A DNA stretch of 45,476 nt from Escherichia phage vB_VIPECOTPH05A, in the sequence record PQ429079.1; one strand, 5' to 3'. Under the pieces are notes generated by a model. The model made no database searches. It was not told the DNA's origin and was given only the letters and a program-made list of their open reading frames with translations. The stretch's first letter is position 1, and each line of letters starts with the position of its first letter. Below are positions 2,563 through 38,955 of the stretch, one piece after another. Made by a program: the position numbers and the translations under genes.

Positions 2563-2655
2563 TCAACGGCCTTTCAACCCGTCAAAGCATCCCCAGAAGG
2601 CCCCAACCACCGCGCCAGCACCGATAGCCAATAAGATGAAATCAATCTCTGTCAT
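2563..2655 (-). CDS. 30-aa hydrophobic peptide (possible lysis accessory)
   Basis: MTEIDFILLAIGAGAVVGAFWGCFDGLKGR; start overlaps endolysin stop (ATGA); below ORF-track size cutoff. Confidence 0.3.
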   Translation of the reverse strand: MTEIDFILLAIGAGAVVGAFWGCFDGLKGR

Positions 2656-3137
2656 TTAACAGCCCTCCCGATAGCAACCGCCTCTTGCCACGGTTTACCG
2701 TCGAACAGTGCCAGACGCCCGGCGGTACGTCGGCGCAGTCCAAGTAACGGTTTACCATTCTGGTTGATGAACAGTGCCAGCTTAGCCCGTAGCGTCTGCG
2801 CATCACCAGCGCGCAGCGCCTTACCCGTTCCGGTAGTAGCTGCGATTACGCCAGCGCCCGCGTTAAACACCAGGTCGCACACCGCATCGAACTGACCCTG
2901 CGTCAGCGAGTGATGCGCTGCGGCGTCAACGGCAGATACGGCCTTAGCCATGTCACGATTGAGTAACAGGAGGCCCTGACCTGGCGTGATGGTCTGCCCT
3001 GGCTTAACATCAGCACCGTAATGCCCGTAGCCTATAGTCAGGTACTTCTCGTCCGGCGTAGCGCGATACGCAGTTCCGCGGAAGCCCTCGAACGCAGCGC
3101 AGAAATGCAGTCCATTATCTGAAATATTTCGAGACAC
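2652..3137 (-). CDS. endolysin, GH24 (T4/lambda-type) lysozyme
   Basis: catalytic pattern E..D..T in FEGFRGTAYRATPDEKYLTIGYGHY; likely GTG start at 3137 with GGAGG RBS 8 nt upstream; ORF track gives 2652..3188. Confidence 0.8.
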   Translation of the reverse strand: MSRNISDNGLHFCAAFEGFRGTAYRATPDEKYLTIGYGHYGADVKPGQTITPGQGLLLLNRDMAKAVSAVDAAAHHSLTQGQFDAVCDLVFNAGAGVIAATTGTGKALRAGDAQTLRAKLALFINQNGKPLLGLRRRTAGRLALFDGKPWQEAVAIGRAVK

Positions 3138-3387
3138 GCTTATGTCCTCCGTACGACAGCCACGCCTGACGAATCTGGCGCAGCGCAACTAATGTGATTA
3201 ATGTCTCAGGCAACGCAGGCGACATGCTGCCCTGTAACAGGTGGATACATCCGGCGGCGCAAACGATAGCTGTCAGGATATAGAGCACCCGACCAAATAG
3301 CCCGTCGTCCACACTGGGGTGGTATACGTTAAACAGCGATGCGCCCTCAATTGCGAGCATACCGCCAAACCAGAATAATTCATTCAT
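3115..3387 (-). CDS. holin/antiholin-like membrane protein
   Basis: ORF 3115..3480; start MNELFWFGGMLAIEG at 3387 with GGAGGTGG RBS; two hydrophobic segments; overlaps both neighbours. Confidence 0.5.
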   Translation of the reverse strand: MNELFWFGGMLAIEGASLFNVYHPSVDDGLFGRVLYILTAIVCAAGCIHLLQGSMSPALPETLITLVALRQIRQAWLSYGGHKRVSKYFR

Positions 3388-3688
3388 TACCACCTCCGCG
3401 ACGTGCGATGTATTCTCCGGCGACAATGCCAGAGAGACGGGAATAAATCGGCATCCAGAGAATAGCAATGATGAACCCAAGGCCTGCTATTTCGCGTTCA
3501 CCTGCGATACCGAACCATTGAGCGGCAAGAGGTGCACCGAATACGGCGCACGCAAATCCAGTGGCGAGAAAACAGAGAGCATCGACAGGACCAGTAATAG
3601 TGGCTTTGTGTTGTCGTAAGCCTATTACCCCGCCAGCTAGTGAGGCAGCCAGAAGCCAGCCCGTCACTGTTTCAGTAAATTTATCCAA
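3380..3688 (-). CDS. holin-like membrane protein
   Basis: 102 aa with three hydrophobic helices (WLLAASLAGGVIGL, FLATGFACAVFGAPLAA, GLGFIIAILWMPIY); immediately upstream of endolysin. Confidence 0.55.
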   Translation of the reverse strand: MDKFTETVTGWLLAASLAGGVIGLRQHKATITGPVDALCFLATGFACAVFGAPLAAQWFGIAGEREIAGLGFIIAILWMPIYSRLSGIVAGEYIARRGGGNE

Positions 3689-3747
3689 GATGAATCCTCC
3701 AGGTGCGTATTAAGTATGCAGTAACTGGAGGATACCACGGGTAGGAA

Positions 3748-4188
3748 TTATCCTAATAGTTGTTTGGTAATAATCTTGCCGCCGGTGTTAGTGTCGAACT
3801 TCGAGGCAACTGCTACCCCACCATGCGCCGAATACCCACATTCCATCGCCGCCAGTGCATAAGGAGAACCGGAACCTACGGCGGCAAAGCTATCAGCAAT
3901 CGGAATAACCGAACTTAGCGCACAATCCCATGATTTATAGAACGCGACTTTATACACCTGTTCGGTGTCTTTCACGAACACCAGGGCTTCGAAATTGAAG
4001 TCGTAAGGCTGTGGTCGAAGAATACCCGGGCAATCGATAAGCATAGTGCCTGCCCCCGCATCACCAGCCACCCCGATAACAGCAAAATCATTCTCGTATA
4101 TCTTTGTGTCTGTGTTGTAGCAGTTACTCCCGCACACAACACGGGTGTCACAGGCCATTGTCTTTCCGTCAAACGCGATAGTAGTCAT
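3748..4188 (-). CDS. Ntn-hydrolase, proteasome beta/HslV-like peptidase
   Basis: N-terminus MTTIAFDG (Thr directly after Met, as in HslV TTIV) and AVGSGSPYALAAMECG resembling HslV GSGGxYALAAA. Confidence 0.5.
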   Translation of the reverse strand: MTTIAFDGKTMACDTRVVCGSNCYNTDTKIYENDFAVIGVAGDAGAGTMLIDCPGILRPQPYDFNFEALVFVKDTEQVYKVAFYKSWDCALSSVIPIADSFAAVGSGSPYALAAMECGYSAHGGVAVASKFDTNTGGKIITKQLLG

Positions 4189-4478
4189 TTGTGTCTCCAG
4201 ATGTATTGTCGTCTCTGCGGTTTTGTCGGAATATCATCGTACCCCAGCGATTTCCAGTAATTAAATAACCGATTAGCGATTGCTGCGCGTTCCTTTGTTT
4301 TAAACTCACCGAGGTTCACGGCCTTCCCATTCTGGAATCCACAGGCGCGGACAGCTTTGCGTCTGGCCTGAATCTCAGGGAACAGCGCATTACGGCGGCG
4401 CTTGTATATCTGTGTTTTAGCTCTCGGCGACAGCGGCGCAAGGCCGCTTCGTTTCAGGATGTCAGTTGCAAGGCTCAT
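4185..4478 (-). CDS. AP2-domain DNA-binding protein
   Basis: ORF 4185..4523; likely start MSLATD at 4478; GFQNGKAVNLGEFKTKERAAIANRLF resembles the AP2 domain found in homing endonucleases; no HNH motif. Confidence 0.4.
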   Translation of the reverse strand: MSLATDILKRSGLAPLSPRAKTQIYKRRRNALFPEIQARRKAVRACGFQNGKAVNLGEFKTKERAAIANRLFNYWKSLGYDDIPTKPQRRQYIWRHK

Positions 4479-4669
4479 ATTCCGAGAATCTCGCGGGCCA
4501 TTTCTTCTGTAACTTTCGAACAAGGTTCGTATATTACCTGTTCAGCGAATTCACGTAACTTTGCTTCCAGTTTAAGATAAGCGTCGTATTCTACATAATC
4601 GCCGTATGCGTACTCAGCCATCTCAGGCTCTGGCAGGCCCCATTTTTCCACCTCATACCTCTGTACCAT
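4475..4669 (-). CDS. hypothetical protein (MVQRY paralog A)
   Basis: ORF 4475..4714; likely start MVQRYEVEKWG at 4669; tandem paralog of the adjacent gene. Confidence 0.45.
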   Translation of the reverse strand: MVQRYEVEKWGLPEPEMAEYAYGDYVEYDAYLKLEAKLREFAEQVIYEPCSKVTEEMAREILGI

Positions 4670-4872
4670 CACTCCACCCCTTCCAAATGTGTAACTGACC
4701 CACAGTTCGCGCACTCTACGTAATCAGGGAACTGGTCTTTGTATTTCTGTAACTCGGCTTCAACTTCCAACAGCTTGTGGTCAAGATTCTGGTAGTCCTC
4801 AAACTTAACCCACGCCCCGTGACGGTCCCCGAAATGGTTGTCAGACCCATACTTAGAGTATCTCTGTACCAT
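4669..4872 (-). CDS. hypothetical protein (MVQRY paralog B)
   Basis: ORF 4669..4878; ATG at 4872 with AGGAG RBS; starts MVQRYSKYG. Confidence 0.45.
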   Translation of the reverse strand: MVQRYSKYGSDNHFGDRHGAWVKFEDYQNLDHKLLEVEAELQKYKDQFPDYVECANCGSVTHLEGVE

Positions 4873-26703: not shown

Positions 26704-27059
26704 AATTCAATCTCCGTGTACAGGTCGCTCAGGTCAACAAGCCGGTCTAGCCGTACCTGACGGGAGGCCATCTCGCAATGACTCACCATTCCGTCAAAGT
26801 AGACCCCGGCGTGCCACACGATTCTGCCGCCGCGGCGCCTACCCATAAGAACCGCGCACAAGTTCTCAGGCTTATCAATTTTCGTAAGCCCCTTCGTGTT
26901 GCGATGCCCTTCGTCAAACGCGTCGTTAATTGCCGTTGGGCTTGTAGCGTCGAACGCCGGTGTGGCTAACCCGGCATCCGCACGGACAATACGCACGTGA
27001 TGCCAGCAATTGCGTTTGCGAAAGTCGTAAGGTATCCCCGTGTAGTCGTTAATGTTCAT
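26694..27059 (-). CDS. tail assembly protein, NlpC/P60 domain (lambda K-like)
   Basis: 121 aa with Cys and His residues (NCWHHV...WHAGVY) in an arrangement consistent with NlpC/P60; position in the tip operon. Confidence 0.5.
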   Translation of the reverse strand: MNINDYTGIPYDFRKRNCWHHVRIVRADAGLATPAFDATSPTAINDAFDEGHRNTKGLTKIDKPENLCAVLMGRRRGGRIVWHAGVYFDGMVSHCEMASRQVRLDRLVDLSDLYTEIEFWR

Positions 27060-27586
27060 GTGATTAACAGGCCGCGTAATAAAGGTATCTCTTTAGGTGT
27101 CATGAGTATACCAGTGCTTCGTTGGTTAAGCATAGGTGTCCCTAAATTAGCGGAGAATCGCCCCTTGTCCTGAGCTATGGTCTGCGCCTCGTATGCCACA
27201 GGGCCGTCTGCCGGGTAAGACAGGTCGGTGCTGACATAACGGCGAAATATGAACTTCGGCAACTCAGTACTATCCATCGGAATATTATCCAGTTCATCGT
27301 CCAGTAAATTTCCGACGTCAGGAAGTGTAAACGTCGTCGTCTGGTCCATGTCGTTATTGTTAGCGGCTCCCGACGCTTCCATCGGTGTTGGCTCGAACGT
27401 GATTGTTTCGCCTGTCTCCAGTGTTGCCGTAAGTTCCTGTAGCCCTCGAACAAGATAGTACGTCTTCGACAGCAACGGGTGGCTGATTTGCAACGTGATG
27501 TAGTCCATCTCGCCGTCGGGATTCGAGGCCAGCTTACGGCGATAGGCGGCTTCTACTGATTCCTGGCTCATTGCATCGGGTCCCAA
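27056..27586 (-). CDS. minor tail protein (lambda L-like position)
   Basis: 176-aa ORF between M-like and K-like genes. Confidence 0.45.
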   Translation of the reverse strand: MGPDAMSQESVEAAYRRKLASNPDGEMDYITLQISHPLLSKTYYLVRGLQELTATLETGETITFEPTPMEASGAANNNDMDQTTTFTLPDVGNLLDDELDNIPMDSTELPKFIFRRYVSTDLSYPADGPVAYEAQTIAQDKGRFSANLGTPMLNQRSTGILMTPKEIPLLRGLLIT

Positions 27587-28068
27587 ATTCGTGGAAACGT
27601 TGATTGCGCGGTTCCGTAGGCTTTAAGGAAGCAATTAAGCCCGTCGCCATAACAACCATACAAATCCGGCAGATTGCTAACAAGGCACTGGTTATATTCA
27701 TCCTGGAACGGCGATTTCTCGGCGGTTGCCGTGAAGGTAATCGTCCAGTTAATGCCGTCTTCGGTGGACTCCGCGATGGTGGATGTAATTGTTACCTGGT
27801 AATCCTCAATGCCCATGCCGAAGTCGTGCGCCATCCAGAAACTTGAAGCACCACCATCGACTTTCTCAATGAACGACAGAAACGCCTGTCGCCCTAGTGC
27901 TGAGGTAATCAGGGTTACGCTTATCGGGAACACGTCGTAATACGTGTCACGGCCCTGACGCACCCCGCCACCGGCTAAATCTACACTCCAGACGTTGTTA
28001 CGTCTGGTCATTGAGTAGCCTTTTGATACCACCGGCTTAAGGCTACGTGGAAAGTATAAGTCGCTCAT
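27568..28068 (-). CDS. minor tail protein (lambda M-like)
   Basis: FLSFIEKVDGGASSFWM resembles lambda gpM ESFLEEHGGWKSFLW; follows tape measure. Confidence 0.5.
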   Translation of the reverse strand: MSDLYFPRSLKPVVSKGYSMTRRNNVWSVDLAGGGVRQGRDTYYDVFPISVTLITSALGRQAFLSFIEKVDGGASSFWMAHDFGMGIEDYQVTITSTIAESTEDGINWTITFTATAEKSPFQDEYNQCLVSNLPDLYGCYGDGLNCFLKAYGTAQSTFPRIWDPMQ

Positions 28069-37591: not shown

Positions 37592-37846
37592 TTATGATTC
37601 GATTACACCAGCGGCGCGGAGTTGCGCCAGAAGTGCGTTTAGTTTAGTGCCTACGGCGTTAACCGCAGTCTGTGCGGACGTAGCAACCGCGGCGGCGTCT
37701 TCACCCGTAACGGTTTGCGAGCCGATATTGGTTACCGCAGCACCTTTCTTAACCAGTCCAGCGGTTTCTGCCGTTGTGTCAGGCACAACACTACTGAAAT
37801 CGGTGTTCTCAAGGCTGCGAGGCAAGCCTTTTCCGGTCTTAGCCAT
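37592..37846 (-). CDS. hypothetical protein
   Basis: 84-aa ORF directly downstream of the capsid terminator. Confidence 0.4.
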   Translation of the reverse strand: MAKTGKGLPRSLENTDFSSVVPDTTAETAGLVKKGAAVTNIGSQTVTGEDAAAVATSAQTAVNAVGTKLNALLAQLRAAGVIES

Positions 37847-37855
37847 AATTTACCT

Positions 37856-37889
37856 CTTAGTAAAAGAAAAGAGGGACCGAAGTCCCTCT
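37856..37889 (-). terminator. rho-independent terminator downstream of capsid gene
   Basis: stem AGAGGGAC/GTCCCTCT followed on minus strand by UUUCUUUUAC. Confidence 0.6.
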
Positions 37890-37905
37890 CGATTATAGCT
37901 TAACC

Positions 37906-38955
37906 TTAAGCACCGACACCAGTTACCAGGAAGGCAATCGGTACATGCTTACGCTCAACAACGCGGTTCCAGTTGGAGGCGTTCGCCAGGTCCTGCCATG
38001 AAGCAGAACGTGCGACGGTCTCGGTGCCGTTACCGGTGATTACTGCGCTGGTAAAGCTGTAGCCCAGTGGGTGCAGCAACCAGGTCTTACGGGTCCACAG
38101 GGTTTCTACCCCACCGCCGTTGCCGCGAGACGCTTCGCGCTCGTATTCCAACGGGTTGGACGGAGAACCTTCACCGTAACCGATAGCGCCGTTACCGAAG
38201 ATAATGGAGATGAACTTACGGCTAGAGTCGGTGCTGACTACGGTCATGCTGTCGTCAACAATCACGCGGTAACCCTGGTAGGTGGCGAACAGTGTGTCGT
38301 TGTCGGCGTCTTTGATGAAGTCAATAAGCTGCTGCTTACGGGCCTGCGCATAAACGAAGCTGTGCATCGCGATAGCACCCAGCACTTCTCCGCCGTTGCC
38401 CATCAGCGCATCACCCATAGTCTGGGTGGCGTCGATGAACGCACCTGCGTCGAAGCCCAGAGTAGCAGACACGTCTACAACCATGTCATTCTGCTCGTGG
38501 TATGCGTCGGTAGCGGCTACGTTGTCATTGTACAGACCGAGCGCGGTAGCGATCAGACGGCGTTGCGCCTGGCGCTGCCAGAAGTTATCCAGACGGGACG
38601 CTACGGATTGCAGCGGGTTCTGGCTGGTCAGTTCGACAGTCAGGTCCGCCTGGCCAAAACCTTCGTTCAGGTATGCAACGCGCGCCATCATCTCGCCGGT
38701 TTGCACGTTACGCGGGGTAGCGATGTCCTGGTATACGTCGTTCGAGTAGTTAGGCTCGATAGAAGTATCAATCGCTTTCCAGAAAGGAATGTTAGCGACG
38801 TTGGACGGGCCGCGGGCAATCTCGGCGGCGTACGGAGTAGGGGTAAGAATACCGGACTGGAAGAACGCGGTTTTTTCTACCGGGTCCTCGGTCATATAAG
38901 ACGCCAGGACCGGGATGTTGCCAGTTACGATATCGCCGATAGTGGTAATTGCCAT
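37906..38955 (-). CDS. major capsid protein
   Basis: 349-aa protein immediately after the scaffold gene and followed by a strong terminator. Confidence 0.7.
   Translation of the reverse strand: MAITTIGDIVTGNIPVLASYMTEDPVEKTAFFQSGILTPTPYAAEIARGPSNVANIPFWKAIDTSIEPNYSNDVYQDIATPRNVQTGEMMARVAYLNEGFGQADLTVELTSQNPLQSVASRLDNFWQRQAQRRLIATALGLYNDNVAATDAYHEQNDMVVDVSATLGFDAGAFIDATQTMGDALMGNGGEVLGAIAMHSFVYAQARKQQLIDFIKDADNDTLFATYQGYRVIVDDSMTVVSTDSSRKFISIIFGNGAIGYGEGSPSNPLEYEREASRGNGGGVETLWTRKTWLLHPLGYSFTSAVITGNGTETVARSASWQDLANASNWNRVVERKHVPIAFLVTGVGA

Follow-up and report, generated by a model that had tools for sequence, protein, structure and literature searches.

Escherichia phage vB_VIPECOTPH05A (sequence record PQ429079.1) carries, on the minus strand of its genome, a short gene located immediately upstream of the holin-holin-endolysin lysis cassette. 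The stretch of 45,476 nucleotides that was analyzed as a whole is hereafter called the window. It derives from a Kagunavirus (Guernseyvirinae), that is, an E. coli siphophage, and the region considered here is about 90% identical to that of phage vB_VIPECOMC04. The gene ends a run of small leftward genes that begins near a divergent control region at about 8.2 kb. It consists of an ATG start, 146 codons and a stop codon, and its translation is MTTIAFDGKTMACDTRVVCGSNCYNTDTKIYENDFAVIGVAGDAGAGTMLIDCPGILRPQPYDFNFEALVFVKDTEQVYKVAFYKSWDCALSSVIPIADSFAAVGSGSPYALAAMECGYSAHGGVAVASKFDTNTGGKIITKQLLG. The features of the locus are as follows:

3748..4188, minus strand: coding sequence of the predicted PPH-family proteasome/HslV-like N-terminal-threonine hydrolase, 146 aa, stop codon included
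4195..4198, minus strand: Shine-Dalgarno sequence GGAG, 6 nt before the ATG, read from the sequence
4185-4188, minus strand: ATGA, in which the ATG (4186-4188) overlaps the TGA stop codon (4185-4187) of the upstream phrog_9632 gene (sequence; PHROG match)
3690..3738, minus strand: stem-loop in the gap separating the PPH stop codon from the start of the holin gene (folding energy -22.7 kcal/mol, z -3.76)
2652..3688, minus strand: lysis cassette, holin-holin-endolysin, directly downstream of the PPH gene with a gap of 59 nt
ORF 3380-3688, minus strand: holin phrog_2359, TTG start at 3688 (PHROG E 7.7e-29)
within ORF 3115-3480, minus strand: holin phrog_2508 (PHROG E 3.1e-32)
within ORF 2652-3188, minus strand: endolysin (PHROG E 5.5e-44)

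The open reading frames were listed from the first start codon downstream of a stop, and no in-frame start codon lies upstream of the ATG of the 3748..4188 frame. Hence, threonine is residue 2 by necessity and a propeptide is impossible. The initial annotation had described a protein of 146 aa beginning with MTTIAFDG, in which threonine directly follows the initiator methionine, and this is what the translation gives. Among three Kagunavirus copies of the gene, dN/dS ranges from 0.09 to 0.20, indicating purifying selection.

The stem-loop located between the PPH gene and the first holin gene is unusually stable, since none of 200 shuffled sequences reached its stability. It pairs CCUCCAG with the CUGGAGG of the holin Shine-Dalgarno, and its 3' arm holds GGAGGA. 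As no U-tract follows, this hairpin is not an intrinsic terminator, and a terminator scan of the window called none between the two genes. Kagunaviruses fFiEco02 and NTEC3 have the hairpin sequence unchanged, and the structure could restrain translation of the holin. With regard to transcription, a promoter scan found 8 sites vs. 9.1 expected from shuffled sequence, thus showing no excess. Expression of the PPH gene with the early region is plausible; the gene is mentioned neither in the Kagunavirus transcriptome paper nor in the BASEL paper.

Assignment to the PPH Family

The PPH family was named and modelled by Fuchs, Alva and Lupas (2021), with WP_042125023.1 as the reference sequence. In their analysis, PPH forms a cluster that is separate from the Betaproteobacteria proteasome homolog BPH and radiates from it. 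Its members are phage-borne, contain about 140 residues, have no propeptide and are devoid of helix H2 (PMC8665760).

The window protein matches phrog_1040, the “peptidase HslV family” model, over residues 1-143 (E 6.9e-35, 122 bits), and 305 close homologues of it were found. When 1.84 billion representative proteins were searched with a profile, 5015 relatives were obtained at E<=1e-3, of which 450 reached E<=1e-10. Their length is mostly 135-160 aa (median 147 aa). Of 149 representatives, 140 begin with MT. In GenBank, relatives are labelled “peptidase HslV family,” “protease” or “ATP-dependent protease,” and the vB_VIPECOMC04 orthologue is annotated as a “peptidase HslV family protein.”

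The relationship with proteins of known structure depends on the depth of the profile. Solved HslV was matched with an E-value of 0.14 by single-sequence search and of 0.021 with a shallow profile. A deep profile was made up of the window protein and 130 relatives that are 28-39% identical to it (131 sequences, mean about 33%). Against solved structures, it retrieved Thermotoga maritima HslV (7.6e-12), the proteasome beta5 subunit (2.4e-11) and BPH (1.5e-10), and hhalign against E. coli HslV gave a probability of 96.9% (E 2e-10). In the Pfam database, the window protein alone reaches 20.8 bits for the Proteasome family (PF00227), vs. a gathering threshold of 22.4. Individually, 71 of the 131 family members match this family at E<=0.01 (best 3e-11), and no second Pfam family recurs among the 131. 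At least 40 viral models in BFVD share the fold of the window protein. Two other matches were discarded. The top structure match of the single-sequence search, 4-carboxymuconolactone decarboxylase (E 0.008), is spurious given that the deep profile favors HslV and beta5 at 1e-11 to 1e-12, and a match to ribosomal uS2 from a later structure search was set aside for the same reason.

Comparison with the published family description disclosed no difference. PPH and the window protein both have about 140 residues, a Met-Thr start without propeptide, a beta-sheet core with helices H1, H3, and H4 but not H2, and equivalents of Thr1, Asp17, Lys33, and Gly47. Both are devoid of the C-terminal S12/H5 elements and are carried by tailed phages of proteobacteria, in the present case a Kagunavirus. 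The agreement thus extends to all family characters tested, namely the model match, length, fold, catalytic set, and presence in tailed phages or prophages of proteobacteria. The assignment itself rests on this description and on phrog_1040. Judging from the sequence, the window gene very probably encodes a PPH-family Ntn-threonine hydrolase with an intact active site. The window protein is a minimal HslV descendant of about 140 residues with the proteasome-beta fold. The view of the initial annotation that the gene encodes an HslV/proteasome-like Ntn hydrolase is therefore correct in substance, as supported by the deep profile, the hhalign comparison, the fold and the catalytic set.

The Active Site

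Residue conservation was counted over the 131 diverse family members, whose mean identity to the window protein is about 33%. The codons of the predicted active-site residues are the following:

4183..4185, minus strand: Thr2, predicted N-terminal nucleophile (= Thr1) after loss of Met1
4147..4149, minus strand: Asp14 (= Asp17 of HslV and the proteasome), by hhalign to HslV D17
4102..4104, minus strand: Lys29 (= Lys33), aligned to HslV K33
4072..4074, minus strand: Gly39 (= HslV Gly45, proteasome Gly47; oxyanion hole), by hhalign register
3868..3876, minus strand: Gly105-Ser106-Gly107 (= proteasome Gly128-Ser129-Gly130, GSGG of HslV), by alignment to AIGSGGPYA of HslV
3784..3795, minus strand: Asp132 to Thr135, within FDTNTGG, aligned to RDAYSGG of beta5

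Threonine occupies position 2 in 130 of the 131 sequences and serine in the remaining one, in register with TTIV of E. coli HslV. Position 14 is aspartate in all but two members, which have glutamate (129/131), and Lys29 is invariant. At position 39, glycine is found in 112 sequences (85%) and alanine in 14, while the nearby Gly42 is present in all 131. The HslV-like GSG segment pointed out in the initial annotation lies within residues 103-118, AVGSGSPYALAAMECG, and its alignment with HslV bears out the resemblance. Both of its glycines, G105 and G107, are invariant, and the central position is serine in 120 members and threonine in seven. Toward the C-terminus, Asp132 corresponds to Asp166, and Thr135-Gly136 to Ser169-Gly170, of proteasome beta subunits. 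Aspartate is found at position 132 in 124 of the 131 members, and only T, S, or C occurs at position 135. Overall, the catalytic positions are conserved at 90% or more with two exceptions, the glycine of the oxyanion hole (85% Gly) and the position equivalent to Ser169 (Thr/Ser/Cys). The catalytic residues, whose conservation the initial annotation had proposed as a check, are thus retained across the family, and the entire predicted residue set of a proteasome-type threonine peptidase is present and selected.

An active site of this type may also be considered in a non-degradative context. The protein could act as a connectase-like ligase or transpeptidase, or as an amidase whose target is a small molecule or one particular site of a protein; we consider such Ntn chemistry improbable here.

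Fold and Absence of Helix H2

The structural description given here is based on an AF2 model of the monomer built on the 131 diverse sequences (pLDDT 93.5). An earlier AlphaFold model built on 33 close homologues was discarded (pLDDT 63). The model and the profiles both give the proteasome/HslV fold, and the unrelated fold against which the initial annotation had cautioned is not what is found. According to DSSP, the only helices of the model are 44-50, 108-116, and 121-131. Between strands 36-42 and 66-72, a short H1 (44-50) is followed by coil, and H2 is absent:

3994..4038, minus strand: coil 51-65, in place of the helix H2/pore-loop region of HslV (DSSP, hhalign gap, entropy)

That the protein is shorter than HslV had been noted from the start (146 aa vs. 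176 codons in E. coli HslV). The hhalign comparison locates the missing length mainly opposite HslV residues ~60-90, where the alignment gap sits, that is, in the helix H2 region. In the window protein, the G42-F66 segment, from H1 to S6, has 24 residues, which is the minimum of the family sample (median 30; at most 42). The N- and C-terminal thirds hardly vary among 193 close homologues, and the coil that replaces H2 is the most variable part, with sequence entropy peaking at residues 51-60. This pattern suggests diversification or recombination at a loop that may face the substrate. Residues 51-60 of the window protein read IDCPGILRPQ, as compared with the common VKDDGILVPK type.

Comparison with HslV, BPH, and Proteasome Subunits

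In HslV (ClpQ), the surface carrying the H2 pore cluster docks HslU. The window protein is about 30 residues shorter than HslV, has no helix H2 and is not accompanied by an hslU gene. It also lacks the Arg86/Arg89/Lys90 cluster, which is located at the HslV pore on helix H2 and is required for HslV activity (PMC5777263). Moreover, its scores for the NCBIfam HslV equivalogs TIGR03692 and NF003964 are 14.7 and 13.9 bits, vs. cutoffs of 157.75 and 137. With equivalog scores so far under the cutoffs and H2 absent, the window protein is not an HslV orthologue.

Among solved structures, the closest relative is BPH (PDB 5OVS, 5OVT, 5OVU), which binds epoxomicin but is inactive on the model substrates assayed (PMC5777263). 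Protease activity, even in the case of BPH, is presumed. BPH is encoded by a bacterial chromosomal gene, has about 185-200 residues and keeps H2 as well as a long acidic pore loop, whereas PPH is phage-borne and has neither of these two elements. In BPH, the residues that contact HslU have been lost, and the protein does not depend on HslU.

With the beta subunits of the 20S proteasome, the window protein shares the core fold and all the catalytic positions, including Asp166 and Ser169-Gly170 (FDTNTGG vs. RDAYSGG). In contrast, a propeptide, H2, the C-terminal helix H5 and alpha subunits are all missing. Finally, the RPC class of Fuchs et al. has a homologous N-terminal domain that is likewise devoid of H2 (PMC8665760). 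RPC-like phage proteins carry a C-terminal extension, which the window protein does not have. C-terminally extended relatives that align to the window protein were observed in Aeromonas phage PAc (276 aa, locus 3689-4519), in Phapecoctavirus nepoznato (230 aa, locus 4001-4693, with an annotated internal repeat) and in Vibrio phage BA3 (191 aa, locus 4001-4576).

These comparisons bear on the idea that the window protein is a true equivalent of HslV, docking on the host HslU ATPase to give an ATP-dependent phage/host hybrid protease. The “ATP-dependent protease” label of some GenBank records would agree with it. However, it is made unlikely by the equivalog scores, by the loss of H2 with the basic cluster needed for HslV activity, by the HslU independence of the equally close relative BPH, and by the placement of PPH in a cluster of its own radiating from BPH.

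Distribution and Genomic Context

A search with the alignment consensus located relatives of the window protein in 684 GenBank phage records, many of them with the “peptidase HslV family” label. Guernseyvirinae and Phapecoctavirus are among them, as are jumbo phages of Erwinia and Salmonella, giant phages of Caulobacter, phages of Vibrio, Pseudomonas, and Klebsiella and an Autographiviridae phage of Xylella. In Caulobacter phages CcrSC and C2, up to four separate matches to the PPH consensus are found per genome; for these giant phages, multiple copies raise the possibility of hetero-oligomeric rings.

Carriage is patchy within the Guernseyvirinae. About 32 of ~94-112 E. coli records (roughly one third) and 258 of ~363 Salmonella records (about 70%) contain the gene. 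In Kagunavirus fFiEco02 (locus 2525-2600), it is missing with the precision of the open reading frame, and both flanks, the upstream gene and the leader of the holin, are nearly the same as in the window. In Kagunavirus, PPH is therefore an accessory gene, and this clean absence together with the patchy carriage shows that it cannot be essential for head maturation or lysis. A function as head-maturation protease was also rejected because Kagunaviruses without PPH have the same capsid module.

The neighborhood of the gene varies from one phage group to another. DNA ligase and RNA polymerase flank PPH in Xylella phage Cota, and in Shewanella phage 3/49 it lies close to NinG/DnaD/DnaB. In a Klebsiella Jedunavirus, it is embedded in the tail module, and in other phages it occurs among small unknown genes. 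When the open reading frames of 10 divergent annotated GenBank loci were compared all-against-all by BLAST, no shared neighbor was found other than PPH itself, and no unfoldase, hslU-like or adaptor gene accompanies PPH across the 10 phage loci. In the window, the translationally coupled upstream gene (phrog_9632), which has no Pfam match, was rejected as an obligate partner because it is retained in fFiEco02, and a role of the PPH gene as a defense-system component was not retained, there being no PADLOC match.

The adjacency of PPH and the lysis cassette is specific to Guernseyvirinae. There, PPH might influence the timing of lysis by processing or degrading the downstream holin, antiholin or endolysin. 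The three lysis genes indeed follow on the same strand without an intervening terminator in the window, and the PPH-holin-holin-endolysin order, also annotated in vB_VIPECOMC04, is the same in Kagunavirus and Jerseyvirus. Nevertheless, fFiEco02 has the same holins and endolysin without PPH, a strong intrinsic terminator occupies the PPH-holin gap in Jerseyvirus Ent1, and the gene is located away from lysis genes in the other phages cited above (Cota, 3/49, Jedunavirus), so that a lysis-timing role appears very unlikely. In vB_VIPECOMC04, two Rz-like spanin genes are located far from the holin-endolysin genes, beside head genes (26824-27888; 37823-38887 of the record), and an HNH endonuclease gene is annotated between them and overlapping them.

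Proposed Mechanism

In the literature, we found no experimental paper on any PPH and no function reported for phage HslV-like proteins. The following mechanism is therefore proposed from the sequence, the model and the comparison with related enzymes. By established specificity rules, a Met-Thr N-terminus is a substrate of methionine aminopeptidase. Met1 would be removed by the host enzyme, as it is for E. coli HslV, leaving threonine as the N-terminal nucleophile. Lys29 and Asp14 would complete the triad, Gly39 would provide the oxyanion hole, and Ser106, Asp132, and Thr135, the counterparts of Ser129, Asp166, and Ser169, would keep the site together. Through the retained ring-stacking helices H3 and H4, the protein would most likely self-assemble into a ring or a double ring. 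It would then cleave peptide bonds in a narrow set of host or phage proteins, without HslU. The case for HslU independence is that the helix carrying the pore cluster is missing and that no unfoldase gene travels with the family. We place the chance that PPH works as an HslU-independent ring protease slightly above even. In the infection, the enzyme would serve as a conditional fitness or host-takeover factor, dispensable to the phage, rather than as a morphogenesis or lysis enzyme. Taken as a whole, the explanation in which a PPH-family threonine hydrolase and HslU-independent ring protease acts as a dispensable host-takeover or fitness factor is likely.

Phages are known to produce inhibitors of host proteases. 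The window protein, a small HslV-fold protein without regulatory elements, could accordingly be pictured as a catalytically irrelevant decoy that poisons or sequesters host HslVU, by capping HslU or mixing into HslV rings, and thereby shields phage proteins, but this is hardly credible since a pure binder would need none of the catalytic set that is kept in full despite ~33% family identity, and since the HslU-contact surface is precisely the deleted part.

Within the preferred reading of an HslU-independent ring protease, a more specific scheme may tentatively be put forward, although we hold it to be rather unlikely in this precise form. PPH would be a mini-proteasome in which the coil of residues 51-60 selects the substrates, and it would destroy host defense or regulatory proteins early in infection. 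As a variant, it might capture a host AAA+ unfoldase other than HslU. If true, this scheme would account for the clean, cassette-like gain and loss of the gene between phages that are otherwise near-identical, and for the presence of as many as four copies in giant Caulobacter phages.

Significance

The gene call as such is already known, since the family received its name in 2021 (PMC8665760), a dedicated PHROG covers it and the gene carries this annotation in close relatives of the phage. No smaller proteasome-type enzyme than PPH is known. Its active site is intact, and phages of enterobacteria, Vibrio, Pseudomonas, and Caulobacter commonly carry it. Natural Kagunavirus pairs with and without PPH share identical flanks. 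With a genome of 45 kb and E. coli as host, they offer a handy system for studying the function of a viral proteasome homologue. The interest of the locus thus rests on its biology, namely on what such a viral proteasome homologue degrades.
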